From positions 1 through 41,285 of the forward strand of contig JAAFKI010000073.1 in assembly GCA_021399345.1 (NCBI GenBank): 41,285 nucleotides of DNA. Reading direction: 5' to 3'. Shown here one piece after another: positions 3,101 through 28,693 of the stretch. Under the pieces are notes generated by a model. The model had not been told where the DNA came from, made no database searches, and saw only the letters and a program-made list of their open reading frames with translations. Source of the stretch: Candidatus Heimdallarchaeota archaeon. Lineage in GTDB: Archaea > Asgardarchaeota > Heimdallarchaeia > Heimdallarchaeales > Heimdallarchaeaceae. The position numbers and the translations under genes were made by a program. Each line of letters begins with the position of its first letter. Position 1 is the stretch's first letter.

Positions 3101-3323
3101 CTTCTTCTGCTAAAGTGAAAGTTCCAAATTTAACATACTCATTTTCTCCAGTCATAAATTGGGAATTGGTTACTTCTACTTCTGTAGTCATTAAGCTTTG
3201 TAAAGATAATAAAATGCCTTGCATCATACTAGAATCTTTAGCAAGACGTCCTATAGTAGCAAAACTTATCCCAGCATCGCTTCCTGCTGAAATCCATAAA
3301 TCATAGGGAAAGTGTTTAGACAT
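177..3323 (-). CDS. Large hypothetical protein (~1048 aa) with probable N-terminal longin-like domain and a long helical body
   Basis: Long ORF. ATG at 3323 (MSKHFPYDLW) is preceded by an SD-like GAGGT and preferred over the track start at 3362. The N-terminus LWISAGSDAGISFATI...DSSMMQGILLSLQSLMTTEV... resembles the Asgard longin pattern. The CDS is secure; the domain call is tentative. Confidence 0.6.
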   Translation of the reverse strand: MSKHFPYDLWISAGSDAGISFATIGRLAKDSSMMQGILLSLQSLMTTEVEVTNSQFMTGENEYVKFGTFTLAEEADNVVVQYVVKSNQPGKISKTEEQLVQELALSFCKFIVLTPNFHQNMAIGKMISPDFVSKAFLKACTIAKQKLSISSNNRGLNELINQNIKILETDAIKFPTVAQLKDLKAWLGKDENSWDKGAIVPFKRQLLVQMVAQDILNQIIIKDPFVLVEYERPRFVIEEIRNSIERNLKAKDIKPQELIDKYLAKNLNKKVAAQLKKLTIDEIHSASSFIAHNLAKEIVYTLAKDEPLCSLVDYRDVNLFSSIQNQITLAAEVPNPGSMICDALIEDVSPLALQSARLFYSQLIKPFIGKKLPPSIWNAIIDFTFSILSEKKISSIKNKGTKMKGTSISVKRTLLKERLSHLTVLQTKWLKQLSDKFTTMGVGKQLELSNIEESVLFASALERAIITTLEKIIKDQLFNASLGDIFSFMVNSFRQIAPKTVFVSILSKIMDDLKGRGYETQKQMNLSSTDLIGAAIDEGEIKVFINSVPVQLKRSFFKGTKLRFDGRTISSTELLQKQNVTINLANTIIPLRAVEQDAEFLTTCLINTSVLKRAYSKAILRGMISTYLQKMFHFEGEVYNQLDTLITVFNREMAGKLTQAHRLPDVQNSFPSFPIIQDIPQRFRGKNFHERCQESWNIYAPKIYRIIQELLNGFSNLRKNDLNYKKKAMRLYSRSLKDLKYIRRMLIKNWNPLNDQMTKMVESWSKDVSVNLSSHLSEVSRNASKWIGDVFKIQKLEYGKITISEKQSLKEIIDTVNRINPQEIAELPKNFMEIAISILLYRRIPEYVIDDSYNQMISGEKRVADSVLRAWSKSRSRKEFENNLYLNMRVLGNTFTKMIDTYGRLTSTLFIKNDLELSSDINGYYIVLGDFPKEVFSTKAEVLDILKFPNVSVISHPKDWEIRLYLEPDYKREMDEYRDRLIVMSDIVGFVARMKFDENTGPVLEGMKAVISYLIENGETNIIDLSETIKEALFRLSEYPTAIVEDKQ

Positions 3324-3527
3324 AGACCTCACATATTGTACGTTGTAACTAAACGTTCTCAATTCTTAATTTTTGTGTTCTTTAATATTGTTTTGCCTAA
3401 TGGTAATGACAAAAGTATATGAGGAAGAAATATTTCGAGATTTACTTTCTATTTAGATAACAGAAAGTTTAAGAATTAAACCTTTACAAGTTAGAGTAAT
3501 TAATTCATTAATTTATGTGAATTCAAG

Positions 3528-6431: not shown

Positions 6432-8360
6432 TTATTTAACTAAATTACTTGTAAGCTGAGTTTGGTAAAGGTCTCGATATTTTCCTTTCTTCTTTAGTAA
6501 TTCTTTATGAGAACCTATTTCAACAATTTTCCCATCATCTATGACTACTATTTGAGAGGCTGTTTTTATTGTTGATAATCGATGAGCAATGATTATAGAA
6601 GTTCTTTCACGTAACATAAGATTAATTCCTTTCTGAATTAGAGATTCAGTAATTGGATCGACTGAACTGCTACATTCATCTAAGATTAGAATACTTGGGT
6701 TTGCTATGACAGCTCGAGCAAGAGATATAAGTTGTCTTTGTCCTAAAGATAACCTTGACCCTCCTTCTTTTACATCCGTATCATACCCTTCTGGGAGTTT
6801 CAAGATATAATCGTGCAATCCAAGCATTAGACATACATCATATATTTCATCATCAGTTGCATCCTTTCTCCCAAACTTTAGATTTTCCTTAATTGATCCA
6901 CTAAAAAGATAAACATCTTGAGGAACAACAGCTATATTTCTTCTTAATGTTTCTAAATCGATTTCCTTTATGTTTATTCCATCAATACTAAGTTCTCCTT
7001 CTGTAACATCGTAATAGCGTGATAATAGTTTAGTAATTGTAGTCTTACCGGCTCCTGTTTGACCAACCAAAGCTATGCTTTTCCCAGGTTCTATTGTTAA
7101 ATTAATATTTTTGAGAATAGGAACTTTTGGTTGATATCTGAAATGTACGGATTTTAACTCAATAAGTCCTTTAATTTTCTTTGGGAAGAAAGGCTTTGCT
7201 GAATTCTTCACAGAAGGATCTTCGTCTAATATTTCGAATATTCTTTCGGCACTAGCAAATCCAGATTGTATGACCGTGTAGAAAGTAAAAAGACTAATTA
7301 CTGGCATGAAGAATCTATTTGAGTATTCTAAAAATGCATAAAGTTTCCCATAAGTAAGAGTACCAAGCGAAATAACTGAATATCCTCCGAAGATAATCAC
7401 AATGGTACTCCCCAAAGCAGCTATTAGTTGTATAATAGGCATGAATAACGAGGAAATCCCTGCAGCTTGAACATTTGCTGAATAATTTTCCTTATTTAGA
7501 TCCTTAAAATTTTGAATGTTCTTTTCTTCTCTAGAGAGAGCTTTAGTTACTTTTACACCTGAGATTGTTTCTTGTAAATTTGAGGTAACTTGAGCAATTG
7601 CGACTCTAGTTCTCCTATATGCTGATCTTACGCGTTTCTGGAAGAAGAAAGCTATTATTAACAATAAAGGGATTACAGTAATTGTCAAAAGAGTCATATT
7701 TATATCGAGAATGAACATCAAGACAAGAATCCAAACTAAACTTATGAAATCTGCAAAGATGTCTATAATACCCGTCGTTAATAGCTCTCCTAGGGAATCT
7801 ACATCATTCGTCAGTTTGGAAATTGTTCTACCAGATTCTGTATCGGTGAAATAATCAAAAGAGAGATATTGTAGTTTGGAGAATAAATCACCTCGAATTC
7901 GATAAATCATCTTTTGTCCCAGTTTAGCAAAGAAAATTGTTCTTACTAGTATCAAGATGAAGTTAACAACTATGAACAATAGATACATAGCCCCCATAAT
8001 TAAAATAGAGTTAGTTATCTCATTCTTTGAAGTAGGAATCATAAAACTGATGCTTTTTGTTAATATTCCGATATTAGAAGCACTGTAATTTGAAACATAT
8101 GTTTTTCTGAAACTAGATAGTATTAATTCCAAAGAACTAGCATCAGTATAGGGTTTAATGAAGTAATCAATAATTTGTTGCATTAGAATGGGAATAGTGG
8201 TAGTGAATAGAGAAAACAAAACCACAACAGCTAGAACTGAAAAAGCTTCTTTTTTGTAATAACTAAAAATTCCCAGAATTTTTTTAAACAGAGTCCTATC
8301 GGAATATTTTTTATCACGTTTTTCTTCTTCTCTCGCCATATAACGCATTATATGCCCCAT
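6432..8360 (-). CDS. Heterodimeric ABC exporter, TMD-NBD half carrying the canonical Walker B and H-switch
   Basis: Multi-TM N-terminus, GQTGAGKT, LSLGQRQ, ILDE, IAHRLS; 1-bp overlap with its partner. Confidence 0.92.
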   Translation of the reverse strand: MGHIMRYMAREEEKRDKKYSDRTLFKKILGIFSYYKKEAFSVLAVVVLFSLFTTTIPILMQQIIDYFIKPYTDASSLELILSSFRKTYVSNYSASNIGILTKSISFMIPTSKNEITNSILIMGAMYLLFIVVNFILILVRTIFFAKLGQKMIYRIRGDLFSKLQYLSFDYFTDTESGRTISKLTNDVDSLGELLTTGIIDIFADFISLVWILVLMFILDINMTLLTITVIPLLLIIAFFFQKRVRSAYRRTRVAIAQVTSNLQETISGVKVTKALSREEKNIQNFKDLNKENYSANVQAAGISSLFMPIIQLIAALGSTIVIIFGGYSVISLGTLTYGKLYAFLEYSNRFFMPVISLFTFYTVIQSGFASAERIFEILDEDPSVKNSAKPFFPKKIKGLIELKSVHFRYQPKVPILKNINLTIEPGKSIALVGQTGAGKTTITKLLSRYYDVTEGELSIDGINIKEIDLETLRRNIAVVPQDVYLFSGSIKENLKFGRKDATDDEIYDVCLMLGLHDYILKLPEGYDTDVKEGGSRLSLGQRQLISLARAVIANPSILILDECSSSVDPITESLIQKGINLMLRERTSIIIAHRLSTIKTASQIVVIDDGKIVEIGSHKELLKKKGKYRDLYQTQLTSNLVK

Positions 8361-10174
8361 TAATCGTTCCCCCCATGAATTATGTCTTTCTGACTATGTG
8401 GATCAATTTCACTGTAACTCTGTTCAAGGGTTTGGTAAATTTCTTGATACAAACCTTTTGAATTTATTAGTTCAGAATGTGAACCATCTTGAACAATTTT
8501 TCCTTCATCAAAAACCAAAATCCTATCTGCATAATGAACTGATGAAATTCTCTGAGAAATGATAATAGTTGTTCTCCCTTCACTTAAAATATTCAAGGCT
8601 TCTTGTATTTGAGCTTCAGTTTCAGCATCTACTGATGCAGTTGAATCATCGAAGACAAGAATTGAGGGGTTAGTTAGAAGGGTTCTAGCAATTGAAAGTC
8701 TTTGTTTTTGACCTCCCGATAGAGTAATTCCACGATCACCAACTTTTGAATCATAGGCGTCAGGTAATCCAGAAATGAACTCATGTATATTTGCTATTTT
8801 GCTAACCTCTATAATCTCTTCATCTTCAGAATCAGGTTTTCCAAAAGCAATATTTTCTTTGATAGTTGCATTGAAGAGAAATGTTTCCTGAAGAACCAAA
8901 CCTATTTGTCTTCTCATTTTCTTTAGTTTATACTGTTTGATATTTTTACTATCAATTAATATTTCACCTTTAATGGGGTCATAAAATCGAGATAATAAGT
9001 TAACAAAGCTACTCTTACCACTTCCAGTTCCACCTAGAATTACTATTTTCTGACCAGCAGGTATTGAAATATCAATACCATCTAGGATCAATCTTCCTTC
9101 TTCATATTCAAAGCTTACATTCTGATAGGATATCTCACCCATGAACTTTGGCGGATCTATAGCATCTGGATCTTCCTGTACTTCTCGTTTTGCTTCAATT
9201 AATTCAATAATCCTATCTCCACTAGCTAAAGATCTTTGAAGAATCCCTACTAACCAAGTGAGTTGTCTTGTTGGAGCAGGTAGAAGAGCGAGATATGATA
9301 AAAATGCAATGAAATCCCCTAACATAAGCTCTTGTCTAGTAACCGCTATCCCTCCAACAGCTATTACTAGAGCTGACCCAATTCCGATTAATAATGTCAT
9401 TGTTGAAAAATAAATTGCACGATAAATTTGTGTTTTAATTCTTAAATCTCTGTAAGTGATATTGGATTCATCAAATTTAGCGATTTCAGATTCTTCTTGA
9501 GCAAAACCTCTCACAACATGAGCACCAGTGACATTTTCTTGTAATATTGATGTTACGTCTCCAAATTGTCTTCTAGCCTGGTAGAAAAGAGGTCTAACCT
9601 TAGTACTAAACCAGTGAACTAACCAAATGAAACCTGGAAACAATGCAACTAGAATCAACCCTAGTTTCCAGCTCATGACTAGCATTGCAACATAAGCACC
9701 AATAAAGAAAACTAAGCCATTCATTACTAATCTCAAAGCAAAACTAATCAAACTTTGAATTGCATTAAGATCTGTAGTGACTCTAGTCATTATCTGACCA
9801 GTATTCTCATCATCGTAGAATTCTAAACTCAGTTGTTGAAGAACTTCGTAGATATCATTTCGGAGTTCAAAGATTATTTGTTGAGCATATTTAATTGCAT
9901 AGAATCGTGAGAAAAAAGTCAGAATACCACCAAAAATAGCAATACCCAATAAACTTAAACCAATTGTCCAGACAAGATTAATCTTTTCATTAGGAATAGC
10001 ATTATTGATTAATTCCCTAACAAGCAAGGGTGAAATTATACCTACAATTGATGCAAAAAACGAAACAACAGTAATAAAAATTAGAGATTTCCTTCTGCGT
10101 GATATATATGGCCAGATAATCTTGAAGATTTCTTTAATAGAATGCGCTCTTTTTCGATTTTCTAGCCATGACAT
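8360..10174 (-). CDS. Heterodimeric ABC exporter, TMD-NBD half with degenerate Walker B and switch (TM287/TmrB-like)
   Basis: GGTGSGKS, LSGGQKQ, VFDD (Glu to Asp) and ISQR (His to Gln). Confidence 0.92.
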   Translation of the reverse strand: MSWLENRKRAHSIKEIFKIIWPYISRRRKSLIFITVVSFFASIVGIISPLLVRELINNAIPNEKINLVWTIGLSLLGIAIFGGILTFFSRFYAIKYAQQIIFELRNDIYEVLQQLSLEFYDDENTGQIMTRVTTDLNAIQSLISFALRLVMNGLVFFIGAYVAMLVMSWKLGLILVALFPGFIWLVHWFSTKVRPLFYQARRQFGDVTSILQENVTGAHVVRGFAQEESEIAKFDESNITYRDLRIKTQIYRAIYFSTMTLLIGIGSALVIAVGGIAVTRQELMLGDFIAFLSYLALLPAPTRQLTWLVGILQRSLASGDRIIELIEAKREVQEDPDAIDPPKFMGEISYQNVSFEYEEGRLILDGIDISIPAGQKIVILGGTGSGKSSFVNLLSRFYDPIKGEILIDSKNIKQYKLKKMRRQIGLVLQETFLFNATIKENIAFGKPDSEDEEIIEVSKIANIHEFISGLPDAYDSKVGDRGITLSGGQKQRLSIARTLLTNPSILVFDDSTASVDAETEAQIQEALNILSEGRTTIIISQRISSVHYADRILVFDEGKIVQDGSHSELINSKGLYQEIYQTLEQSYSEIDPHSQKDIIHGGND

Positions 10175-10309: not shown

Positions 10310-11179
10310 TTGAAAACTAGTAAACTAATGTGTTTGACAATAATCATTACATTCATGATAGCTCCAGCAACCAGTCATCCAGTGATACCTGTACAAGGAG
10401 ATTTTGAATTCACTGAATCATGGGACTACAAGGGGATAATTAACAGACAAAGTCACCGTATTACATATAGTCCTATTTATGGATTTGATCCAGATATGCT
10501 AAGAACATTCATCTATTGCTTAGATGACGCTAATGACAATGATACAGCCATTGATACCATTGTTGCCTTACATGGAATAAATCCACTTCGTAATGCACCA
10601 CAGCATTCTTTAATATTTGAATCGATAAGTATAGGTGCAGAATATGGATTCAATGTGAGTTCTGAAGTAGGAATGGAATGGGTTGATGTTGAATATGATT
10701 CAGATGTGATTAATGCAAGTTCAAGTTCTTATGATCCAGCAATAGAAGAAATTTATGAAGCTGTTAAGCTTAAAACAATATATTCATTACCAATATTATA
10801 TGATAATATTACTCATCCTGTAAATCTTGCCTTTCCAGTTCATATTGCTAATTTTGTCACCCAAACTGGAATAGTAGGACATTGGAGGCAAATAAATAAA
10901 GATCAGACTGTTATAAATGGTAATTTTACTACCTTTGGACCAGATAATCCAATCTTTACTGGACCTGTGAATGAGACCGATCCGACAAATTATGCTTATC
11001 CTGAAGATCAATGGTGGCCACAATTTAATGTCACAGTTGCTCAAAATGTAGAGAGAACTTCTCTTCCTCGAACACATAGTCTTCAGGTTAATTTTCCATT
11101 CACAACAATCATTGCATCTTTTGCACTTGTTCTTGTGATATTTACATTTGTTAAGAAAAACAGGAGGAAAACAAGATGA
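10310..11179 (+). CDS. Secreted, C-terminally membrane-anchored surface protein (paralog 1)
   Basis: Signal-peptide-like N-terminus, several N-x-S/T sequons, C-terminal TM helix followed by the basic tail KKNRRKTR; TTG start. Confidence 0.75.
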   Translation: MKTSKLMCLTIIITFMIAPATSHPVIPVQGDFEFTESWDYKGIINRQSHRITYSPIYGFDPDMLRTFIYCLDDANDNDTAIDTIVALHGINPLRNAPQHSLIFESISIGAEYGFNVSSEVGMEWVDVEYDSDVINASSSSYDPAIEEIYEAVKLKTIYSLPILYDNITHPVNLAFPVHIANFVTQTGIVGHWRQINKDQTVINGNFTTFGPDNPIFTGPVNETDPTNYAYPEDQWWPQFNVTVAQNVERTSLPRTHSLQVNFPFTTIIASFALVLVIFTFVKKNRRKTR

Positions 11180-11961
11180 GAAAAATAACTCTATTCATAG
11201 TAACTCTAATGGTTACCTCTTTATTCTTGCTATCATTCAATAATTCAATCAACGTTACTGCTGAAGAAACTGAAGATGAAAATTGGGATTTTACAGGTAT
11301 AATGAGAATTACTAGTGATCAAAAGAGAATTCTAGTCTTTGATCCAGTTGCACATGGATATAATGAGACATATGGTGATTTTGACACACCCTTGCTCTAT
11401 ATGGATGTCATGGGTTATGATACTGATGGTGACGGTGAAATGGACGTATACTATGGATTTTATGGCACCTCTAGTCTTTTCGATTTGACCCATATCAACT
11501 ATACAACTATGAGTAATTTATTGGTGGTGAAAGTGTTTGCAAAATGGAGTTTAAGGATACCTGAAAGTTCACCTTTGAGTTGGGAAGTTCTCTATTATCC
11601 AGATCCGTTTTACAATGCTATTGCTTATAATTTTCTTCACAAAATACCAATTTACTATGTGAATCTCACAAAAGCTGAAGGTGTTAATCTTCAGTTCAAA
11701 ATTGAACTAGGACTGAATTATACATTAGGTAATTTTACTACTTTTGGAGCTAGTAATCCAATAGTTCCATCAATGCCAACGTTTCCTGGGTATAATGTTT
11801 CTGTTCCTGTGTTTACAGCTAATTTACCTATTAGCGAACTTGTAGCGACACCTTTCTTCTCGGATCCTCTAACCTATGTGACAATTGTAACAATGTTTTT
11901 CTTCTTTGGTTATTATGTTAAGAAGAGGGGAAAAAGAACGAGTAATAAGAACAGTACTTGA
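11176..11961 (+). CDS. Secreted, C-terminally membrane-anchored surface protein (paralog 2)
   Basis: Signal peptide, DTDGDGEMD loop, C-terminal TM plus KKRGKR. Shares WDxxGI, GNFTTFGxxNPI and PxxNVxV with paralog 1. ATGA overlap. Confidence 0.75.
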   Translation: MRKITLFIVTLMVTSLFLLSFNNSINVTAEETEDENWDFTGIMRITSDQKRILVFDPVAHGYNETYGDFDTPLLYMDVMGYDTDGDGEMDVYYGFYGTSSLFDLTHINYTTMSNLLVVKVFAKWSLRIPESSPLSWEVLYYPDPFYNAIAYNFLHKIPIYYVNLTKAEGVNLQFKIELGLNYTLGNFTTFGASNPIVPSMPTFPGYNVSVPVFTANLPISELVATPFFSDPLTYVTIVTMFFFFGYYVKKRGKRTSNKNST

Positions 11962-12009
11962 TTCCCAAACCTTTTTATTTTTCTTTCTATTACATCTTAA
12001 TGTATTGAG

Positions 12010-12690
12010 ATGATTGGATTATCTTACTTTGTTTCTATATTGTTAATCTCAATTTTCAGCTTAGCAATAGCAATTTTAATTATAATGCCAAACATCTTTA
12101 GGGTTAAACAATATATTTGGTTAAGCTTGAAAATATTACTCATAGTAATTTGTGCAATTCTAGTAATCTTATTTGTAGAGACAAAAACAGACGCTTATTA
12201 CTTTCTAGGAAGCTTCTTTGGTGTTGGATTTCTGATTAAGGGGATACTGATGTCTAATCGATTAAGCTTTGTAGTTTTCCTATTAAGTTTTATGTCCTTT
12301 TCGTTTGTATTTTTGTCTATTGGTAATGTAATTATGTTTGTTTTCAGTCTCTGTTTTTCCTATCTCTTCATAATTGGCATAACTGCTTTTAGTTTATATG
12401 ATTCAAAAGCTAAAGAAACGATTATTGAAGGTAGTAAAAGATTTCAAACTATAAGTTTTATAACTTTACTTGCTTTCCCAATTATTACAGTATACATACT
12501 TTATTTCCTATCAGAGAATCAAGTGATATGGATTGAGAAAACATCATTCTTCGATTTGTTCTACAAGAACAATGATGCAATTACTTTCCTGATTATAGGA
12601 GTTATCTTTTTACTAACAGTAACATTTGTGTTCGTATTAGATTTACAAGCTCAAAATAAGAAAAGGGTAGATGAACCATGGTATTCTTAA
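12010..12690 (+). CDS. Membrane protein, NuoJ/ND6-like (divergent, with extra N-terminal helices)
   Basis: Highly hydrophobic. The helix layout and the C-terminal DLFYKNNDAITFLIIGVIFLL resemble NuoJ, and it lies directly before the NuoK-like and NuoL-like genes. Confidence 0.45.
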   Translation: MIGLSYFVSILLISIFSLAIAILIIMPNIFRVKQYIWLSLKILLIVICAILVILFVETKTDAYYFLGSFFGVGFLIKGILMSNRLSFVVFLLSFMSFSFVFLSIGNVIMFVFSLCFSYLFIIGITAFSLYDSKAKETIIEGSKRFQTISFITLLAFPIITVYILYFLSENQVIWIEKTSFFDLFYKNNDAITFLIIGVIFLLTVTFVFVLDLQAQNKKRVDEPWYS

Positions 12691-12959
12691 GTTATCTAAT
12701 TGCTCTGAGTCTCATTTGTTTCTGTTTAGGCTTGCTGCTATTAATGTTCTCAAAATCGAAACTTCAAATGAATATGAGTTTTATCTTTCTCTTTTTATCA
12801 GGTATTTTTCTTATATCTAGTTCTATTATGAGTGCAGATATTGTTTTATTCTTCTTATTAGGATTAGTTACAATTACTATAATCTTGGCTTTTCATTTCA
12901 GAGATCAGTTATTATCGAATATTCATGTAGAAGCAACAAGGAGAGAGGAAATTGAATAG
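12678..12959 (+). CDS. Small 3-TM protein, NuoK/ND4L/MrpC-like (degenerate)
   Basis: 93 aa. YLIALSLICFCLGL resembles NuoK TM1. Overlaps both neighbours and has no intramembrane Glu. Confidence 0.55.
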   Translation: MVFLSYLIALSLICFCLGLLLLMFSKSKLQMNMSFIFLFLSGIFLISSSIMSADIVLFFLLGLVTITIILAFHFRDQLLSNIHVEATRREEIE

Positions 12960-14898
12960 TATAACTGTCTTACTAATTGCTCAAGTTTCGATTTTGATTG
13001 GTTTACCTATATTTAGACGTCTATTAGTGTTTTCAGATAACGATAAGATTAGGGTAAGAAAAATTTATTCAAGCATTGTGTCTCTTTCCTTAGCTGGATT
13101 CTCTATTATTATATTTGCACTTACCATACATTATCTGAATGCAAATAATTTTTCAAACCTTACAGAGGAAATAACCTTATTTTCCATATCTGGATATAAT
13201 TTCGCTCTCGGATTTCAATTAACTCAAATCCAGGTTCTTCTGTTTGTAGGTGTTACTTCAGCTGTAGCTTTGATAAATTTCTATTTGGTATGGAGTCAGG
13301 AAAAATGGACTATTGATCAAGTAGACAGAATCTCTATTTACTCGGTGATCTCCATCCTAATTATCTTATCTCCAAACTTATTTCAATTGCTGTTTTTCTT
13401 AATTGTGGCTGATTTAGTTTTAATTGAACTGTTATACAGTTTGAATCAAGAAGAAAGTAAACAGAAGAACTTGAAAATAATGACAGCTTCGTTTGGTGTC
13501 GGAGATTCCCTGATTTCTTTAGCATTCATACTACTTTTTAGACGATCAAAAAGCTTTGATTTTGACATTATTTTGAGTGATATTCAATACAAATTTTTCA
13601 TTTTTAAACCATATTTTATTGTTCTCTGTTGTTTGTTTCTTCTAGGTATATTAGCAAAAAGTTCATTGTTCCCATTTCACAGCTGGCTACCTAATATTTG
13701 TTCTAAAGAATCTACATGGAAATTTAGCCCAATAATGATCAACATTATTCTTGGAATATCACTAATCTTTATTTCCCCAATATACAAGTTACTTGTATCA
13801 GTACCAAATTATTATGCATGGTATGGTATTATATTTTCTGTAATTGCAACACTTTTTGCTATATTTCTGGCAAAGGAATTTGAAAAACAGATTCTAGTTT
13901 TCTCTTCTTCTATAGGTTTGTTATTAATTTCAATTGGAAGCGGAAATCTGTCAAGTGCTTTTCAGCTCTTGATGATGTTGCCTTTTGCTTTTCTGGGTCT
14001 TGTGATTCTTTCATCAAAGTCTATAAACATCCACATAGATCCTCCTACTGATCAAAGAAGTAAAAAAATCTTCAGATCAATTGCTAATATTCTCATTGTA
14101 ACAATTATTATGGTCTCAATAATTTCAGTAATTCCTTTTAGCAGTAATTTACTTACTTTGGGTTATTTATTCACTTCTAGTATTGTAGATTTGAGTCTTC
14201 TTGTTTACATTTTATCCATTGGTTCAATTTTGGGCATAACTTTAATTTGTATTCAAATAAGTTGGAAATATTTCAAACAAAATCTTTTGAAGAGACTAAA
14301 ATTTTCAGAGTTGTTTCCACTTATTATAATTCTAGTTTTCTTATCAGCAAACAGTGTTCTTTATCCTTCATTTAACATTTTAAATCCATTTTCATTACCC
14401 CTTAATTTCTCCCAAGAAAGCCTTTCCATTTCTCTTATCCCAATTTTTGTAGGATGGTTTGTTATCCTCGTTTCATACATTGTTATTGAGTTATTTGCTG
14501 AAAAAATCTCAATATTTCTCAATAAATTTTCAACAAAGATTCAAGAAGAATTGAGCAAAATTTACTATTTCGAATTTATTTTCTCACCGATATATTGGGT
14601 ACATGTTAAAATCATTATTCCATCATCAGTCTGGTTTTATGAAAATGTGATCAGAGATTTTATTTACAATGTTATAATAGTCAGCATCTTCAGATTTTTC
14701 TTCTATTTAACAAACCTTGTTAAGAACTTTGTAAATAATGTTGCAGTTCCACGAACTGTAAATTTCTTTAAGAGAAGCTCTCAATTTGTTCAAAGCTTGG
14801 AAAGTGCAAAACTAAAAACACAACTACTTTACATAATCCTAGGACTTGGGATAATGTTTGCTATTACAATTGCTCTTTATGCTGGAGGTATAATCTGA
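12952..14898 (+). CDS. Antiporter-like subunit, NuoL/ND5/MrpA family (degenerate)
   Basis: AKSSLFPFHSWLP matches the NuoL KSAQxPxHxWLP motif. Also NLFQL, VGD, and a C-terminal amphipathic helix followed by a final TM. Confidence 0.8.
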   Translation: MNSITVLLIAQVSILIGLPIFRRLLVFSDNDKIRVRKIYSSIVSLSLAGFSIIIFALTIHYLNANNFSNLTEEITLFSISGYNFALGFQLTQIQVLLFVGVTSAVALINFYLVWSQEKWTIDQVDRISIYSVISILIILSPNLFQLLFFLIVADLVLIELLYSLNQEESKQKNLKIMTASFGVGDSLISLAFILLFRRSKSFDFDIILSDIQYKFFIFKPYFIVLCCLFLLGILAKSSLFPFHSWLPNICSKESTWKFSPIMINIILGISLIFISPIYKLLVSVPNYYAWYGIIFSVIATLFAIFLAKEFEKQILVFSSSIGLLLISIGSGNLSSAFQLLMMLPFAFLGLVILSSKSINIHIDPPTDQRSKKIFRSIANILIVTIIMVSIISVIPFSSNLLTLGYLFTSSIVDLSLLVYILSIGSILGITLICIQISWKYFKQNLLKRLKFSELFPLIIILVFLSANSVLYPSFNILNPFSLPLNFSQESLSISLIPIFVGWFVILVSYIVIELFAEKISIFLNKFSTKIQEELSKIYYFEFIFSPIYWVHVKIIIPSSVWFYENVIRDFIYNVIIVSIFRFFFYLTNLVKNFVNNVAVPRTVNFFKRSSQFVQSLESAKLKTQLLYIILGLGIMFAITIALYAGGII

Positions 14899-16394
14899 TG
14901 AGTTATCCTCTCTCATTCTTGTACGATTTTCTACCTCTTGAAATTCTTCTACTAGGAATCATCTTAATTATCATTTTAGGGTCACTCTCCTCTAAAATTA
15001 TCAGAAAATTCCCGTTTCTAATGACAAGGATGAGGATTGTTTATGGTTATATTGCTCTTATTTCAAGTATTATTGCAGTTATTGTGTATAGCTACTTATA
15101 CACCCCCTTAGATAGTAATTATGTAATTGCTTTTGAATTGACCATAACAGCTTTTACTTCGGGATTATTTTATGCGGTTTCATTTGCTATCATTATTGGG
15201 ATTTTCTTATCTATAGTTGAAATTGAGTTGAAATTTAGGAAAAGCTATATGCTTTTTGTCTCTTTGCTTTTGATTGAATCCAGTACCATGTTCATAACTG
15301 CTGCAAATTCATTGGTGTTCATTTTCTTTGGTTTTGTATTAATTTTTACTGGAATGAATTTCTTCATAAGAAACTTCACAACAAAAATACCCGATAAAAA
15401 GAAATCTTTCATAGGAAACTATCTAACTTTGAGTAGTTTAGCTCTATCTTTATTATTTATTGGTTTTGCAGCTCATTTTCTCTCAGGAAATTCCTTTATA
15501 TTGTCAATAGAAAATACCACTTTACGTCTCTGGGAGTTAATAAGCGAGATATTCATACTATCTGGATTATTGGTTCTAGTTGGGGGTCCTCCTTTTCACT
15601 TTATCTTTTTTGAATCGGAAAATGAGAAATTTAATGCAATCACACAGATAATGATTTCCGTTCAGAAAGGTTTGACCTTAGCTTTCTTAATTAAATATAC
15701 TTTAACAATTGCTGAATCATCATTTTCAATAGTTTTAATTTGGTTATTCACTGTTTGTGGTGTTGTCTATGTTCTTTGGGGAGTCTTAGCTTCCATGACA
15801 GTAAAAAGATTACAGAAATTAGTACACTATATCAGCATCATATTTGTGGGAATAATACTTCTGATTTTATCTGATTTATTTTCTCCCCTCCTCACTGAAG
15901 AATTTATAAATCTAACTTTAAAAACTGCATTTTACGGAGTACTGGTATTTATTCTTTCGTTAACATTTTCTATCTCCTCAATAGGTGTAATTTCAAAGGG
16001 TTTCAAATCAGATGAAATACGAATATTAAGAGAAGTTGGAAGAAATTCTATTTCTCAATTTGTTATTATGGTACTTAATGTCCTATTGATGTTTGCTGCA
16101 CCTTCATCAATACTTCTCGTCTCTCAGAAAATTGTTTTTCCCGATTACTTCTCGCCCAGAATGTATGTTACAGCTGTGATTCTTCTTTTAGGTGTTGTTT
16201 TTTCATTAGTCTATCTTATTAGGTTGTTAAGATCAATCTTCTTTATTCCAGTTCTGAGAAGTCAAGAGTTCTCTTCACCTGAACCTGCAGTGTTTATAGG
16301 CTCTTTCATAGCTCTGATTCTTATAGTTGCAGTAGTGATTTTTATCAAACAATTCTTAATTTTCTGCAGTTTGTTTGGAATAAATCTAGTTTAA
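14898..16394 (+). CDS. Antiporter-like subunit, NuoN/ND2/MrpD family (degenerate)
   Basis: GGPPFHF, YLTLSSLALSLLFIG and RLQKLVHYIS (compare KRLLAYSS); many TM helices; TGATG overlap with the previous gene. Confidence 0.7.
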   Translation: MSYPLSFLYDFLPLEILLLGIILIIILGSLSSKIIRKFPFLMTRMRIVYGYIALISSIIAVIVYSYLYTPLDSNYVIAFELTITAFTSGLFYAVSFAIIIGIFLSIVEIELKFRKSYMLFVSLLLIESSTMFITAANSLVFIFFGFVLIFTGMNFFIRNFTTKIPDKKKSFIGNYLTLSSLALSLLFIGFAAHFLSGNSFILSIENTTLRLWELISEIFILSGLLVLVGGPPFHFIFFESENEKFNAITQIMISVQKGLTLAFLIKYTLTIAESSFSIVLIWLFTVCGVVYVLWGVLASMTVKRLQKLVHYISIIFVGIILLILSDLFSPLLTEEFINLTLKTAFYGVLVFILSLTFSISSIGVISKGFKSDEIRILREVGRNSISQFVIMVLNVLLMFAAPSSILLVSQKIVFPDYFSPRMYVTAVILLLGVVFSLVYLIRLLRSIFFIPVLRSQEFSSPEPAVFIGSFIALILIVAVVIFIKQFLIFCSLFGINLV

Positions 16395-16418
16395 TTATTT
16401 CGACAATTCAATAAGTTT

Positions 16419-17423
16419 TTGAATATAGATACTCGAATCAACTTGATTAGAGTGACTTCTAACAAGCTAAATCTTCCACTTGAGGTAGATCAAATAAATT
16501 CTTACTTATCTGATTTAAGAAATCATAGCCCTTATGACGACGAAATCAATGATTTAATTGATCAAATCCTTCAGAATGGTGGTAAAAGGATTAGACCTTT
16601 AATCTGTCTTCTTTCATTTGAGATGATATCAAATGAACAGCGCAATGATACAAGTTTAGCTGCAGCTTGTTCTCTAGAAGTTATTCATAATGCATCATTG
16701 ATAATTGATGATATTTTCGATAAAGATATTTATCGAAGAAAAGAAAAATCTTTTTACTTAAAATATTCCACTTTCGCAGCACTTTCAATTTCTTATTCCC
16801 TAAGTAGTTTAGCTTTAAGTTTAGCTTCCAAAACTAACGTTATTGAGATAGTTGATGAGTTAATTAAAGCAATTCATACATTATCAACTTCATTATTTTT
16901 AGAGCAAAAATTCCGGTCTGGAAAGAATAAGATGTCTCAAGAGGAAGCGCTTCAGCTAATTGATAGGAAAACTTCAAGTTTATTTGAAGCAGCCTCTGTT
17001 ATTGGCGTTCTTCTAGGAAATAGCTCAAAAGAAGATAGAGAATCTATGAAGCTCTTTGGTAAATTATTTGGAAGGGCATTTCAATTAAAAGATGATTATT
17101 TCTCTTTGACTTCAGAGCAGAATGACTTGGGAAAATCAGGTGTTTGGACTGATATCTCGAACCGTATTCAAACCTATATAGTTCTAGAAGCAATGGATCT
17201 GGTCTCACCAAATGAAAAGGAAATTTTAAATGATTATTATATTGATAAGAAAGACTTTCCAACTGAAAAAATAAAATCAATACTTGTAAATTCTGGAGCT
17301 CTTGAAATTGTAAAGAATCTAATATCTCATTATATCACTGAAGCAATTGCGATTCTAAATATGTTTTCCAAAAGTCCTTCAAGAGATAAATTAATCGAAA
17401 TAACAAATTTTTTACGGATATAA
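16419..17423 (+). CDS. Trans-polyprenyl diphosphate synthase (probably medium/long-chain type)
   Basis: GGKRIRP, FARM DDIFD followed by RR, KT motif, AFQLKDD (SARM altered to DDYFS); Ala five residues before FARM. Confidence 0.88.
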   Translation: MNIDTRINLIRVTSNKLNLPLEVDQINSYLSDLRNHSPYDDEINDLIDQILQNGGKRIRPLICLLSFEMISNEQRNDTSLAAACSLEVIHNASLIIDDIFDKDIYRRKEKSFYLKYSTFAALSISYSLSSLALSLASKTNVIEIVDELIKAIHTLSTSLFLEQKFRSGKNKMSQEEALQLIDRKTSSLFEAASVIGVLLGNSSKEDRESMKLFGKLFGRAFQLKDDYFSLTSEQNDLGKSGVWTDISNRIQTYIVLEAMDLVSPNEKEILNDYYIDKKDFPTEKIKSILVNSGALEIVKNLISHYITEAIAILNMFSKSPSRDKLIEITNFLRI

Positions 17424-17437
17424 AAAAGAAGTAGGAA

Positions 17438-18511
17438 TCATTCACTTCTAATTCCTTGAATATATTCACTAAACCAAATATGTGCTGTATATCTATCTGT
17501 TGTAACAGGAGGAGCCTTGAACCCATAAGCGCAGATTGAACTTATTGGACCACTTCCTGCTCGATTAATAGCTACTTTTGTTGCTCTTATCACATCTACA
17601 AGGGTTCCAGCTGCATTAGGACCATCTAATGTTTCTAACCTAATATCTATTTTAACTGGCATCTCCATGAATCCTTCCCCTCGTATCCAGAAATGACCCA
17701 CGCGCCTATTTCCTAAGAATTCTAGATAGTCTGATGTCCCACTTGCAAGATTTATATCATTGCCAAAAGATTGTTTAATAGCTCTTTCTTTTACTTCACG
17801 TTTGTACTGTTTTCTATCATCATCAAGTGTATTCAACGTTTCAAGCCCACCAGCAACATCTAGTTGGTAGGTGTCCTTTATGATAACACCTTGTTCCCTT
17901 AGAACATCTAGAAATCCTTTATGAAGAACTGTTCCTCCAGCTAATGACTGTAAATCGTCTCCTAATAAACATAAATTTGCTTTTTTGAATTTTCTTGCCC
18001 AAACAGGATTGTTAGCAATACTAGTAGGTGTACAATTTATGAATGCTACTTCTGCATCAAGAGCTGCTTGAGCATATGTTTCAACAGCATTTTCTGCGCC
18101 TGAAGGAAGAGCACAAATTAGAATCTCGGCTCCTGAATCCTTTAAACTTTCAACAACATTTGTTTCAGAACCATCTGCTACTACTATTACTTCGAGTAGA
18201 TGATTCGAAAGGCCATCCTTTACAGGTCCCTTGAGTACTTCGACGTTGGTTTTTTCAACATTCACAAATTGGGGAGTACTATTGATTGGTGCAAATATAG
18301 CCTTTTCTAACTCTTTTCCAACCTTATCAGTATCAACATCAAAGGCCGCAACAATTCGAATATTTTTAGCTTCATAACTACTGATTTTCGGATAAAGAAG
18401 TTTTTTCTTTTTATCTTCAAAGATATTAAGATAATTGATACCTTGAAGTAAACCTGAAGCAATATTCCCGATACCAGCGATTGCTATTTTTATAACGTCA
18501 TTTTTCACCAT
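17438..18511 (-). CDS. Divergent inositol-3-phosphate synthase paralog
   Basis: AIAGIGNIAS, VAAFDVD, GDD, SDY, DGPNAAG and FKAPP; collinear with the upstream paralog. ATG at 18511 follows the SD GAGGTG. Confidence 0.8.
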   Translation of the reverse strand: MVKNDVIKIAIAGIGNIASGLLQGINYLNIFEDKKKKLLYPKISSYEAKNIRIVAAFDVDTDKVGKELEKAIFAPINSTPQFVNVEKTNVEVLKGPVKDGLSNHLLEVIVVADGSETNVVESLKDSGAEILICALPSGAENAVETYAQAALDAEVAFINCTPTSIANNPVWARKFKKANLCLLGDDLQSLAGGTVLHKGFLDVLREQGVIIKDTYQLDVAGGLETLNTLDDDRKQYKREVKERAIKQSFGNDINLASGTSDYLEFLGNRRVGHFWIRGEGFMEMPVKIDIRLETLDGPNAAGTLVDVIRATKVAINRAGSGPISSICAYGFKAPPVTTDRYTAHIWFSEYIQGIRSE

Positions 18512-18518
18512 TAGCACC

Positions 18519-19601
18519 TCAGTTAGTTATCTCTCCTCTTATGAATTTTTCAACGAGTTCTTTAGCTTCTGAATCTCTTATTTGTTCAGGAGGATGCTTA
18601 AAGAAGTAACTAGAAACGCCTATTAGAGGACCACCAATATTTCTATCTAAAGCAATTTTCAAAGCTCTTATTACATCAATCATAACACCAGCACTATTGG
18701 GTGAATCTTGCACACTCAATTTTAGCTGAGCTGTAATTGGTTGTTCCCCAAAGTTCTTTCCTTTTAACCAAAGATAACATATTTTTTCATCATCTAGAAA
18801 TGGAACATAATCAGAAGGACCAATTCTAGTAGGAACTTCATAAGGTAACATGCTTGTAACAGCTTCAGTTTTTGAAATTCTCTTTGTAATTAGTCTGTGT
18901 TCCTTTTTCATGTTTTCAAAATCTGTATTTCCACCAATGTTCAGTTGAAAAGTTTCATCCAGTTTTATTCCTCTATCATGAGCTAGTGAAACAAGAACAC
19001 GATGTAATATTGTTGCTCCAAGCTGAGATTTTATATCATCTCCTGCAACAGGTATATTCTTATCTGTGAATTTTTGACCCCATTCAGGTTTTGAAGCAAT
19101 AAATGCTGGAATTCCATTTGCAAAAGCTACGTTTGCATCTAATGCAGCTTGTGCATAAACTTTTGATGCCTTTTCACTTCCTACGGGAAGGAAGTTTACT
19201 AATACATCTGCATTAGTTTCTTTTAAAGTATCTACAACATTTACAGGTTGCATTTCAGAGGAATCATAACAGTGAAATGATTCCATCATATGCTGAGCAA
19301 CTCCATCATTAATAGGACCGGGTTTGACAGTTATTCCCTTGTTAGGGACATCTGAAAACTTATTACAAACATTAGGACTTTGCCAGATAGCCTCAGATAT
19401 ATCTTTTCCAATCTTCTTTGTATTAACCTCAAAAGCAGCTACTACTTCAACATCTGAGATATGATACTCACCAAACTTAACATGCATAACCCCAGGTACA
19501 AAATCGTTCTCATCAGCACTTTGGTAATATTCCAAGCCTTGTACCAGAGCTGATGCACAATTACCAAGGCCAGCAATTGCTACTTTAACTTTTTTCGACA
19601 T
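18519..19601 (-). CDS. ino1: Inositol-3-phosphate synthase (myo-inositol-1-phosphate synthase)
   Basis: GLGNCASALVQG, LPVGS, GDDIKSQLGATILHR, GGNTDF, KRISKT, DSPNSAG and FFKHPP. ATG at 19601 follows GGTGA. Confidence 0.95.
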   Translation of the reverse strand: MSKKVKVAIAGLGNCASALVQGLEYYQSADENDFVPGVMHVKFGEYHISDVEVVAAFEVNTKKIGKDISEAIWQSPNVCNKFSDVPNKGITVKPGPINDGVAQHMMESFHCYDSSEMQPVNVVDTLKETNADVLVNFLPVGSEKASKVYAQAALDANVAFANGIPAFIASKPEWGQKFTDKNIPVAGDDIKSQLGATILHRVLVSLAHDRGIKLDETFQLNIGGNTDFENMKKEHRLITKRISKTEAVTSMLPYEVPTRIGPSDYVPFLDDEKICYLWLKGKNFGEQPITAQLKLSVQDSPNSAGVMIDVIRALKIALDRNIGGPLIGVSSYFFKHPPEQIRDSEAKELVEKFIRGEITN

Positions 19602-19694
19602 GAGTTCACCTTTTTCTTCAAACACGAAAATTAATTTGAACTATTTGAGCAAAGGAACGTTATGCTTTTAAAAAGTTTTATCCTATGTGCTCTT

Positions 19695-20665: not shown

Positions 20666-22471
20666 ATGCCAGATTTTGTTATCGATACAAATTTCTATAT
20701 TAGTGGGTTTCAAACTTTACCTAATACATTTTCCAAATTTGTTAAAGCTTCCAAAGCTCTCAAATTTGAAATTCATATGACATCCTATATTAAGAATGAA
20801 ATGAGGTTTTTTCTTCAAAGGGAAATTACACCCCATGTAAATTTAGTAGATGTAAATCATTCGGAATTTCAAGAGTTCCTTCGCAAAGTGCATAAACATA
20901 CAACAAATCTTCCACAAAAACCAGATTTGTCTGTTATTTACTTAGCTGATAAATTAGGTGCAACCATTGTGAGTAGTGATCTAAAGCTTCTTGAAACAGC
21001 TGAATTGATTGAAATTCCAACACTTACAAACAGCGCATTCACCAAATTTATTATTGAAGAGAACAAAGATCCTACTTTGAATTCATTCCTTAAAGAACTG
21101 GAAAATAAGTTGATGACAGCTGAAATTCGATATTCAATTGAAAGTACAAATAGATATGATCCAGTAAAACGAATCAGAAAGATAATTGATTCTGCTATAT
21201 CTGTAATTCGAACTGAATATGAAGAAAAAATGACTCAGTTATCTCAAAGTGATTTACCTGAAACAGATTGCTTTTCAATTGAATCCTTACAATTAAAGGA
21301 ACTTCTTACTGAAGTTCAAAGTGATTTACAACGCTTAGAAGATGATTTTAACTCAGGTAAATATATGGAATTAGAAGCAGAATTATTAGCTAGAATTCGA
21401 GAAATAACTGACTACTTAGTGGATTGGAAACTTGCTGTTGATAAAATAGAAGATCACATAATCTACAATGAATCTCTTCAACTTCTAGGTCGATTACATT
21501 ATTTATCCTGCATTAGTTTAGTTGAAAATAAGAAAGTTGATCTTGCTAGAGTCTACATGGATAAATTGATTATGATATTATTACAAAACTCAGAAGCAAA
21601 CGAAAAATATGGCATTGATGTTCATTTCTTACGGATGATTATTCTACTTTTATCAGGACAATTTCAGAGATTGAATTCCTATTTCACTCCAGCTTTTGAG
21701 GATGAATGTAACGAATATCAGAGAGCTGATGTTGTCAATGTTATAAGGGCACTAATCTTGCTAACTGTTATTCTAGGAGGGGAGAAGGCGGTAGAAACAG
21801 CGAAAGATTATGATTATGATAATATTGAATTCATCAATCAACTTGGGTTTAAATTCATGCAGTTAGAAGATTTGCAGAAAGCTGCATTAATGTTTGAGCA
21901 AACTTTTTACCTTTCTTTTAATTCCAAGAATAGAGGATTATGTATAGCTAGTTTAGAATATTTAGGTTGGTTATATTTCTCTGGATTTTATCCTGCTAAA
22001 TCGGTCATTAAAAATCTTTATGAAATTCTGGTTAAGAAATTTCCAGAGATTAAATCTAGTTATCAGGTCAGCTTACAGGTTACTAGTAAACCCAAAGATT
22101 TAGAGAACTTCACTTCGTCTTCATATCAACCTCTTTCTGCACTAGCAATTGATCTTAAATCTCCTCTTTATTGTGTAGGAATCTCTTACATGAAAGAGAA
22201 AAACAAAATCAAGCCGTTAATTAAAGTGATGAACTGGGGAATGATGGCTAGAATTGGCATTATAGATGAGAATCAAGAATTAATTCGCAATTCTACTCTT
22301 GGTAATACTATTCATCTTATTGATGGCAAATTCAAAATTGTACCTGCTTCAGCTCATTTTAGAAAACAACATGATGTAGAGTTGATTTTGCATATAGATC
22401 ATGTTTCACAGCCAACAATTTTGTGTAGATCTCCTGGAGGCTGGGAGTTAACAACTATTACTGATGAGTGA
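20666..22471 (+). CDS. PIN-domain protein with a long helical/TPR-like C-terminal extension
   Basis: FVIDTN...NEM...PDLSVIYLA...IVSSD carries the four PIN acidic positions. The remaining ~470 aa are unassigned. Confidence 0.7.
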   Translation: MPDFVIDTNFYISGFQTLPNTFSKFVKASKALKFEIHMTSYIKNEMRFFLQREITPHVNLVDVNHSEFQEFLRKVHKHTTNLPQKPDLSVIYLADKLGATIVSSDLKLLETAELIEIPTLTNSAFTKFIIEENKDPTLNSFLKELENKLMTAEIRYSIESTNRYDPVKRIRKIIDSAISVIRTEYEEKMTQLSQSDLPETDCFSIESLQLKELLTEVQSDLQRLEDDFNSGKYMELEAELLARIREITDYLVDWKLAVDKIEDHIIYNESLQLLGRLHYLSCISLVENKKVDLARVYMDKLIMILLQNSEANEKYGIDVHFLRMIILLLSGQFQRLNSYFTPAFEDECNEYQRADVVNVIRALILLTVILGGEKAVETAKDYDYDNIEFINQLGFKFMQLEDLQKAALMFEQTFYLSFNSKNRGLCIASLEYLGWLYFSGFYPAKSVIKNLYEILVKKFPEIKSSYQVSLQVTSKPKDLENFTSSSYQPLSALAIDLKSPLYCVGISYMKEKNKIKPLIKVMNWGMMARIGIIDENQELIRNSTLGNTIHLIDGKFKIVPASAHFRKQHDVELILHIDHVSQPTILCRSPGGWELTTITDE

Positions 22472-25450: not shown

Positions 25451-26698
25451 ATGCCATTTAGTTCTCGAATACCGAATTTTCACAATCTCTCATTAGAAGA
25501 AAAACGAAATAAGATTGTAGATTTATGCAATTTATCTAATGAAGAAATAACTCTTCTTAAAGGACAAGGTATCAGAGATGAAACTCTTAGTTATATGATT
25601 GAAAATGTGATTGGTAGAGTTGTTCTGCCATTAGGTGTTGCAACCAATTTCACTGTCAATGGAAGAGATCATCTTGTCCCAATGGCTGTGGAAGAGTCTT
25701 CTATCGTAGCAGCTGCAAGTCACGCAGCAAAAATAGCTAGAAAGAAAGGTGGATTTGAAGCAGAATATACAGGTTCGATAGCTATTGGACAAATCCAGAT
25801 TTTAGGTATAGAAGATTTCAAAGCAGCTTCTTCAAACATTCTTATGAATAAAGATAATTTGCTGAAACTTGCTAATTCAACAAACGAGAAATTAGTAGAT
25901 TTAGGAGGGGGAGCTAAAGATATTGAGATTCGAGAAGTAAATGGAAAGATTGAGAAATACCTAGTCGTTCACTTGATTGTAGATGTAAAAGATGCTATGG
26001 GAGCAAATGCAGTTAATACAATGTTAGAGAAAATCAAATCAGAGATAGAGAACATTACTTCTGGCAAAGTTTTACTTAAAATAATCTCCAATTATGCAGT
26101 TCGAAGATTGGTTAAAGTCAAAGCTGTTTTTGATAAGGAAGATTTGGGTGGAGAAGATATTGTTGATAAAATTCTTTTAGCGCATGATTTTGCAGAACAT
26201 GATATCTACAGATGTACGACTCATAATAAGGGGATTATGAATGGAATAACAGCTGTTCTGCTTGCTACAGGTAACGATTCAAGAGCTGTAGAAGCAGGAG
26301 CTCATGCCTTTGCAGTAAAAGAAGGAAGATACAGATCATTATCTAGATTTGAGAAGAATAAAGATGGTGATTTAGTAGGTTATCTTGAAGTACCAGCTTT
26401 TGTAGGAATCCTTGGGGGTGCAATGAATGTTAATCCAATTTACAAACTTTCTTTCAAAATAATGGGTATTAGTAGTGCGAAGGAATTTGCAGAAGTATTA
26501 GGCGCAGTTGGTTTAGCTCAAAATCTGGCAGCACTTAGGGTGCTGTGTTCAGAAGGAATTCAAAAAGGTCATATGAACTTGCATGCAAGAAATATAGCAA
26601 TTACTGCTGGAGCAAAAGGTGAAAATATTGAAAGAATTGCTCAACAAATGATGAAAGAAGAAAAAATCTCTTTTGACAGAGCAAAAGAACTACTTTAG
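25451..26698 (+). CDS. mvaA: HMG-CoA reductase, class II
   Basis: ENVIG, PMAVEESSIVAA, DAMGAN, THNKGIMNG, GNDSRA, GIQKGHM. Confidence 0.95.
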   Translation: MPFSSRIPNFHNLSLEEKRNKIVDLCNLSNEEITLLKGQGIRDETLSYMIENVIGRVVLPLGVATNFTVNGRDHLVPMAVEESSIVAAASHAAKIARKKGGFEAEYTGSIAIGQIQILGIEDFKAASSNILMNKDNLLKLANSTNEKLVDLGGGAKDIEIREVNGKIEKYLVVHLIVDVKDAMGANAVNTMLEKIKSEIENITSGKVLLKIISNYAVRRLVKVKAVFDKEDLGGEDIVDKILLAHDFAEHDIYRCTTHNKGIMNGITAVLLATGNDSRAVEAGAHAFAVKEGRYRSLSRFEKNKDGDLVGYLEVPAFVGILGGAMNVNPIYKLSFKIMGISSAKEFAEVLGAVGLAQNLAALRVLCSEGIQKGHMNLHARNIAITAGAKGENIERIAQQMMKEEKISFDRAKELL

Positions 26699-28524: not shown

Positions 28525-28693
28525 TATTATCAAGATGAATCTAGCCATCCTTATATAAAAAAATATTCAATTAAGTACATCAAAACATTTTTAGTTATTA
28601 TGAAGTTACGGCATAATTGAAGAAGAGAATAATGAAATAACCTTTGGGGTAAATTACTTTATTTTTAGTACTCAAAATTACAGGGCGTAAATA

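Follow-up and report, generated by a model that had tools for sequence, protein, structure and literature searches.

A highly diverged complex-I-like membrane arm without a redox module in Heimdallarchaeota, and its possible non-pumping role

Can a membrane arm of the complex I type be maintained by selection after losing both its redox partner and its ion pathway and, if so, for what? The question is raised by positions 12010-16394 of a 41,285-nucleotide contig of Candidatus Heimdallarchaeota archaeon (JAAFKI010000073.1, assembly GCA_021399345.1; the whole stretch is hereafter the window), in which four plus-strand open reading frames (ORFs) follow each other in the order J-K-L-N. Antiporter-like subunits of complex I are seen as serving ion translocation alone. 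Few features of bioenergetics are as well conserved as their Lys/Glu/His axis, whose residues are required for ion translocation in complex I and in Mrp. An orphan arm that lost axis and redox partner and yet is under purifying selection is therefore a natural experiment on other functions of such arms and on the parts that serve assembly only.

The chances that these genes encode an exapted, non-pumping membrane complex, i.e. a much diverged version, devoid of a redox module, of the distal complex I membrane arm, were judged to be about even. Judging from the residues lost and kept, ion pumping has very probably ceased in the orphan arm, which would have another membrane role instead. New here are the position of the module relative to the canonical operon, an M-like subunit retained in one genus, an L subunit apparently reduced to its strap in two closed genomes, and separate promoter-like motifs for the module and its neighbours.

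Identity of the four genes and the canonical arm of the same genome

The genes were translationally coupled, with overlaps of 13, 8 and 1 nucleotides (nt): a J-like gene (12010-12690, 226 amino acids (aa), two extra N-terminal transmembrane (TM) helices followed by a predicted five-helix NuoJ fold, residues ~58-220), a K-like gene (12678-12959, 93 aa, three TM helices), a NuoL/NdhF-type antiporter-like gene (L-like, 12952-14898, 648 aa) and a NuoN/ND2-type antiporter-like gene (N-like, 14898-16394, 498 aa). The putative C-terminal lateral-helix and TM16 region of L, the strap, spanned 14527-14895 (residues 526-648), with conserved S610, E617 and Q624. The initial annotation had described four overlapping, intact membrane ORFs in nuoJ-K-L-N order, and ORF calls, profiles and the fold match of J bore this out.

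The J-K-L-N identity stands, and is firm for L and N. The L-like protein matched Pfam PF00361 (31.5 bits, cut-off 21.5) and six canonical Asgard L sequences (hhalign probability 98.5%); the NCBIfam NuoL model aligned to residues 14-641 with a weak score (29 bits). A profile of 12 L-family sequences matched cyanobacterial NdhF (6hum_F, 78.9 bits) as well as NuoL chains, and DabB2 (9rd0_B) weakly. The N-like protein had no Pfam match, and its family profile matched Nad2/NuoN chains (58 bits for Nad2 8e73); hhalign against ten canonical N sequences gave a probability of 99.4% over 486 columns. Orphan L and N profiles matched Nuo/Ndh subunits better than MrpA.

For K, hhalign against 32 canonical Asgard NuoK sequences aligned columns 1-39 in register (P 5.4e-4; reversed control 0.019), and the hidden Markov models of orphan K and canonical NuoK matched each other at ~1e-5. 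For J, no sequence signal was obtained with Pfam, NCBIfam, a PDB profile search or hhalign against 25 canonical NuoJ sequences. Residues 60-220 of its AlphaFold2 (AF2) model superposed on residues 1-165 of E. coli NuoJ (3rko_J) with a VIA Z of 11.5 (root-mean-square deviation 2.5 Å, 107 aa), and 13 of the best 15 among 48,161 chains were NuoJ, ND6, NdhG, MbhD or the MrpA C-terminus. Foldseek also ranked NuoJ first, yet with an E of 0.68, and the named ESM Atlas matches were PF00499, which was taken as a lead only.

Pfam scans covered 36 ORFs of the window (the 35 non-overprinted ones with 100 aa or more, plus the 93-aa K-like ORF). They agreed with the initial annotation in finding no NuoA/H/B/C/D/I or hydrogenase gene in the window: no other complex I or hydrogenase gene was detected, and neither NuoH/NuoA nor a Q/hydrogenase module was present in the operon or around it. 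MrpE/F/G families had no match in the ORFs scanned, ORFs shorter than 100 aa outside the operon being left out; within the operon the overlapping genes leave no room for a further ORF, MrpE/F/G-like included.

A separate canonical locus, one of the checks proposed initially, was found in the same genome on contig C53, with the order NuoH-A-J-K-L-N and hypE/hypF alongside. Both of its antiporter-like genes scored ~195 bits, and they are the only two antiporter-like subunits of the canonical arm. The genome holds one NuoH (that of the canonical locus) and, elsewhere, one NuoD-like gene. As canonical L and N lie on contig C53, the orphan genes cannot be the sole L/N genes of a complex I scattered over the genome. 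In two genomes of the same genus (G021 and G016, 88-89% complete) the orphan arm and a NuoD-like gene were present; no canonical PF00361 gene was found in them at this completeness, which could be an assembly gap or a true loss of the canonical arm.

Relay residues, conservation and selection

Substitutions in L were read from three independent alignments that agreed (with NdhF, with the canonical L of the genome and with a wider canonical set). The Trp-Glu pair of TM5 was replaced by L150/I151, and the profile alignments gave no counterpart of the TM8 His/Lys, the second TM11 His, the TM11 Lys or the TM12 Lys/Glu, confirming the losses first noticed at WE144, at the TM8 His and at the Lys and second His of the TM11 HxxTHAxFK motif. 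L had also been said to keep K229 and D178: the TM7 Lys is indeed present as K236, but the second site (D185, in “VGD”) is D, N, S or T across the family. In N, the TM5 Glu was replaced by V147 and the TM7 Lys by L227, so the reported losses of GLE133 and K217 were upheld. Two further N lysines, near K247 and K395, had been proposed to survive; K257 occupies the TM8 Lys position or the one beside it, whereas K411, near the TM12 Lys position, was not conserved. The K-like protein, described as lacking intramembrane Glu, had a hydrophobic residue at the Glu36 position in the alignment to canonical NuoK and no Glu within TM2 or TM3 in any of 14 sequences, with D/E54 at the start of TM3 in 12 of them.

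The loss was quantified at positions where canonical Asgard L (24 positions) or N (9 positions) keeps a charge or His across hydrogenase-type and nuo-type arms. The orphan family kept one of the 24 in L (the TM7 Lys) and, in strictly aligned columns, none of the 9 in N. Coordinated loss of pathway residues, as initially claimed, was found across J, K, L and N and family-wide. “Stripped” suits most of the relay and is too strong for the rest, as L K/R236, a shifted acid in L (D/E154) and N K/R257 are present family-wide. The residues surviving in all 14-15 sequences from five genera were K/R236, D/E154, N142 and Q145 in L, and K/R257 (mostly Arg), H234, E/D108 and E462 in N; other conserved L residues were the S140-P141-N142-x-x-Q145 motif, W245 and, in the 12-sequence set, H243. 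Lys and Arg interchange at L236 and N257, with Arg in many members, and because this exchange is free, these sites would carry a fixed positive charge, structural or electrostatic, rather than a proton carrier.

With an N-family profile the module was detected in 26 of the 30 genomes of one family (five genera) among 83 genomes of the class, and outside this family the profile matched canonical NuoN-type sequences only; among 1.84 billion representative proteins, just 16 matched orphan L at E ≤1e-10. Orphan L was present without internal stops in 22 of 24 genomes of the genus, and the reading frames lacked stops in all matches from the five genera. Orphan genes of distant genus members shared 26-54% identity, against 57-88% for canonical J/K/L/N and 65-84% for flanking genes. 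The ratio of nonsynonymous to synonymous substitution rates (dN/dS) versus close relatives was 0.18-0.26 for L, 0.12-0.22 for N, 0.19-0.28 for J and 0.09-0.29 for K, and mostly 0.10-0.18 for canonical genes. The proposal that these are not pseudogenes is supported by the intact frames in five genera and by the dN/dS range as a whole (0.09-0.29). The suggested comparison with relatives showed same-family orthologues that were neither canonical nor frameshifted but all diverged and intact, so that this is no case of simple recent decay.

Conservation was unevenly distributed along the proteins. In the canonical sets, TM9-13 was as well conserved as TM4-8 or better (49.3 vs. 48.3% in L, 41.3 vs. 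36.7% in N); in the orphan family it was less conserved (21.9 vs. 31.0% in L, 29.3 vs. 35.9% in N), TM9-13 being the least conserved part of orphan L and, in orphan N, falling below TM1-8. N TM1-3 (34.4%), the part that faces K and J in complex I, and the L strap (26.9%) were relatively better kept. The pattern fits selection for assembly, not for the second half-channel. The strap was not shortened, orphan L having 648 aa vs. 660 aa in the genus that retains M (G043), and orphan L extends ~70 residues past the end of the canonical L of the two-subunit arm of the genome.

Variants, genomic origin and neighbouring genes

Gene content differed between genera. In G043 the order was ABC exporter-glycoprotein-glycoprotein-J-K-L-M-like-N-polyprenyl synthase, with an M-like subunit (L077:8331-9818, 495 aa) between orphan L and N; this protein was very diverged (36 bits to PF00361) and joined the NuoM clade with an SH-aLRT support of 93, the sole orphan subunit to join a canonical clade in a tree of 41 antiporter-like sequences. 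The initial annotation had reported no M-like subunit, which holds for the genome under study (a search with the G043 protein as query found no orthologue) but not for this sister genus. As a test of donor the same tree was rejected: the clades of orphan L and N fell outside the canonical ones, their branches being very long, and the tool gave a long-branch warning; for that reason the donor of L and N could not be placed with it. G098 and G099 had the order ABC exporter-J-K-L-N and no glycoprotein genes.

In the closed genomes G065 and G100 the order was glycoprotein-glycoprotein-J-K-[152-aa ORF]-N-polyprenyl synthase. The ORF between the K-like and N-like genes (L075:10538-10996 in G065 and L076:10581-11036 in G100, 151-152 aa) had a KE-rich N-terminus followed by a region matching the lateral-helix and TM16 end of orphan L; it aligned end to end with the last 100 residues of orphan L and kept the S-x6-E-x6-Q spacing (hhalign P 8e-4). 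By sequence it looks like a free-standing NuoL strap. The L core was not found elsewhere in these two closed genomes, and since the strap is kept there without it, the antiporter core of L is dispensable in them.

The module could be traced to a genomic position. In sister families the best prenyl synthase orthologue adjoined the canonical arm: NuoH-J-K-L-x-M-N-polyprenyl synthase in G030, followed by five genes and then by the two inositol-phosphate synthase genes (MIPS2-MIPS1); NuoN-polyprenyl synthase in G037; and L-M-N, three genes and polyprenyl synthase in G025. Given this shared prenyl synthase/inositol-phosphate synthase neighbourhood, the orphan module is a positional descendant of the distal J-K-L-M-N part of the canonical operon. 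In the family of the host genome, the arm would have lost NuoH and nearly the whole charged axis; M would have gone later in most genera, or in one genus the L core.

A BRE/TATA-like motif, CCCAAACC-TTTTTATT, was located on the plus strand at 11964..11979, ~30 nt upstream of the J-like start and downstream of a T-rich stretch. It was equally spaced in 9 genus members; in the genus a CCCAAACC-TTTTTAT motif precedes the J start by ~30 nt, and CAAAAC-TTTTAT-like motifs preceded J in the genera without glycoprotein genes. Given this conservation, 11964-11979 is probably where transcription of J-K-L-N is promoted. All genera had a CAATAAC-TTTTTTTA motif in the stretch from N to the prenyl synthase which, from its conservation, also looks like a BRE/TATA promoter. 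With separate promoter-like motifs, the unit is J-K-L-N, and the glycoprotein pair and the prenyl synthase are neighbours outside the operon.

The polyprenyl synthase gene lies directly downstream of the N-like gene; next come two minus-strand genes for paralogous inositol-phosphate synthases. The listed TTG start of the polyprenyl synthase (16419) falls inside the conserved promoter-like motif CAATAAGTTTTTGAATATA (window positions 16395-16452), and the start is probably the GTG at 16452, as orthologues begin ~11 codons later. Membership of the synthase in the operon was considered and found unsupported, since the two were already adjacent in the canonical operon and the synthase is preceded by a conserved promoter-like motif; for the same reasons, a link of the arm to lipids or quinones is weakened. 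The tandem inositol-1-phosphate synthase paralogues (17438-19625, minus strand, ~35% mutual identity) were kept as a pair across the family and a sister family.

Upstream of J, two ATGA-coupled paralogous genes (up1, 10310-11179, and up2, 11176-11961) encode surface glycoproteins. Both proteins carry a signal peptide, numerous N-x-S/T sequons and, at the C-terminus, a TM helix with a basic tail. They shared WD(F/Y)xG, an acidic DxDxDG-like loop (DTDGDGEMD in up2) and an invariant GNFTTFG, and had neither a Pfam family nor an invariant His or Cys suggesting a metal site. The up1 model (AF2; predicted local distance difference test (pLDDT) 77.8) had no Foldseek match, its best VIA Z (5.2, an OB-fold) was too weak to name a fold, and ESM Atlas gave leads only (<0.9). 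No glycoprotein homologues were found anywhere in the G098 and G099 genomes (89-91% complete), both of which keep J-K-L-N. A complex prediction of J, K, up1 and up2 with up2 as the partner gave weak support (score 0.34, best control 0.00; the runs shared at least 1% of contacts and partner pLDDT was at least 62); of 80 solved complexes 58 attained the mark used, of 110 mismatched pairs 2, and at scores ≤0.60 only 7 of these complexes did so, along with both mismatches. Replacing up1 brought the score down to 0.00, so any signal concerns the up1-up2 pair and says nothing for docking on J or K.

Two tandem half-size ABC exporters (ABC_membrane plus ABC_tran; 6432-10174, minus strand) diverge from the cluster. 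In the two genera without glycoprotein genes the exporter genes directly abut the J-like gene, and the exporter and J-K-L-N units may share a regulatory region. The window also contained a gene for HMG-CoA reductase of the mevalonate pathway (25451-26698), an EAP30/Vps36-family, ESCRT-II-like gene (27781-28548), and two large ORFs without a Pfam family at E ≤1e-4 (177-3362, minus strand, 1061 aa; 20666-22471, plus strand, 601 aa).

Possible functions and comparison with known systems

The initial annotation had proposed a repurposed module that might act as a scaffold, passive channel, lipid/quinone handler or sensor. In an exapted, non-pumping complex the subunits would keep their complex-I-like arrangement next to one another, with the L strap as a clamp. 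Without NuoH/A input and a continuous Lys/Glu/His relay, neither redox-driven translocation of the canonical kind nor translocation of the Mrp type would be expected. Selection would now act on assembly interfaces and on a few buried charges (L K/R236 with D/E154, and N K/R257), and a structural or organising membrane complex would be the most likely role. The more specific proposal of a complex-I-type arm exapted to a non-bioenergetic complex, with assembly including the NuoL strap kept and the ion pathway not, is made only tentatively; if true, it would be the first P-module retained for a structural or organising role.

Several observations weigh against this reading. D/E154 of L, conserved in 15 of 15 sequences, lies three residues (about one helical turn) past the lost TM5 Glu and may compensate for it by re-forming a Glu-Lys pair with K236. 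The first TM11 His was present in 6 of 15 L sequences, and a basic residue occurred at or adjacent to the TM12 Lys position of N in 7 of 9 genus sequences. The J and K assignments, which draw on the fold, weak profile signals and gene order, are weak by sequence and no more than moderately secure overall, and the J model was of low confidence (pLDDT 63.7). M, the L core and the neighbouring glycoprotein genes disappeared piece by piece, as slow decay would explain equally well, and the structural role was arrived at by exclusion, as a default.

Continued ion translocation, by a minimal, redox-independent Mrp-like cation/proton exchanger or channel rewired through L D/E154-K/R236, N K/R257 and polar residues such as N Q/E127, is possible but unlikely. 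Mrp operates without a redox module; the subunit set parallels MrpA (L), an MrpB-like protein (J), MrpC (K) and MrpD (N), the L acid-base pair and the N TM8 base were conserved, and the genes were under purifying selection. However, K has neither glutamate, L and N have no TM12 Lys/Glu, N is also without its TM5 Glu and TM7 Lys, and L without the TM8/TM11 His/Lys; both surviving basic sites were Arg instead of Lys in many members, the overlapping genes leave no MrpE/F/G-like gene inside the operon, and two closed genomes retained J, K and N without the whole L core.

That the arm is a membrane base for a partner, either anchoring the two upstream glycoproteins or extending the canonical group-4 hydrogenase-like complex as an accessory, is quite doubtful. 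In its favour are the paralogous glycoprotein genes that stand directly 5' of J in three of the five genera, the free J/K face, which normally meets NuoH/A, and a canonical arm with just two antiporter-like subunits (Appler et al. 2024, bioRxiv 10.1101/2024.07.04.601786). Against it, J has a conserved promoter-like motif of its own downstream of the T-rich stretch, two genera keeping J-K-L-N (at 89-91% completeness) had no detectable glycoprotein homologues, and two genus genomes carried the orphan arm with no canonical PF00361 gene detected, at only 88-89% completeness. A slowly decaying relic without a function of its own, whose frames stay open through weak residual constraint or because it lies 5' of an important prenyl synthase gene, is improbable. 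Fast evolution relative to the flanks, the stepwise loss of M, L core and neighbouring genes, and a dN/dS somewhat above that of the canonical arm are what a relic would show, whereas stop-free, intact frames in all matches from five genera, a dN/dS well below 1 in every close pair, preserved translational coupling and many family-wide invariant positions speak for function, and the prenyl synthase has a conserved promoter-like motif of its own.

The energy metabolism of Heimdall-group Asgard archaea is used in models of eukaryote origin, and automatic annotation could miscount the orphan genes as complex I subunits. Material for comparison is provided by the genus that retains M, the two strap-only closed genomes, and the sister families with the canonical operon at the same genomic position.

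The gene order of the orphan arm is that of the P-module of complex I/NDH-1, NuoJ-K-L-M-N (ND6, ND4L, ND5, ND4, ND2). Orphan L is of the NuoL/NdhF type, with the SPNxxQ motif of TM5, the TM7 Lys and a putative C-terminal lateral-helix region; N is of the NuoN/ND2 type, J has a predicted NuoJ fold and K a NuoK-like topology. Unlike complex I, the orphan arm has no NuoH/A or Q-module, lacks the NuoK glutamates and, in this genus, M; its J carries two extra helices, and it evolves far faster than the canonical arm.

Heimdallarchaeia have short-armed, complex-I-like group 4 [NiFe]-hydrogenase complexes (Appler et al. 2024, bioRxiv 10.1101/2024.07.04.601786), found in the same organisms as the orphan arm and belonging to the same superfamily. 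That description fits the canonical NuoH-A-J-K-L-N locus by hypE/hypF together with the separate NuoD-like gene; the orphan arm, unlike these complexes, is a separate, diverged locus without a catalytic or NuoH/A partner. Text searches of that paper found no mention of it, and in text searches of the literature the canonical short-armed Heimdall complexes were the only ones described, with no account of the orphan arm.

Mrp (Mnh/Pha) resembles the orphan arm in being a stand-alone, redox-independent set of NuoL, NuoN and NuoK homologues with a NuoJ-like domain, and the MrpA C-terminal domain was among the fold matches of the J-like model; unlike Mrp, the orphan operon has no MrpE/F/G genes and misses charged residues common to Mrp and complex I. 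DabB of the DAB system and NdhD3/F3 retain the ion-pathway residues. Unlike DAB (DabA/DabB) and NDH-1MS (NdhD3/F3-CupA/S), the orphan arm has no DabA- or Cup-type partner, its neighbouring proteins being extracellular and without a Pfam family; these CO2-uptake modules are a precedent for an antiporter-like subunit that has taken on a non-respiratory job together with an accessory protein.

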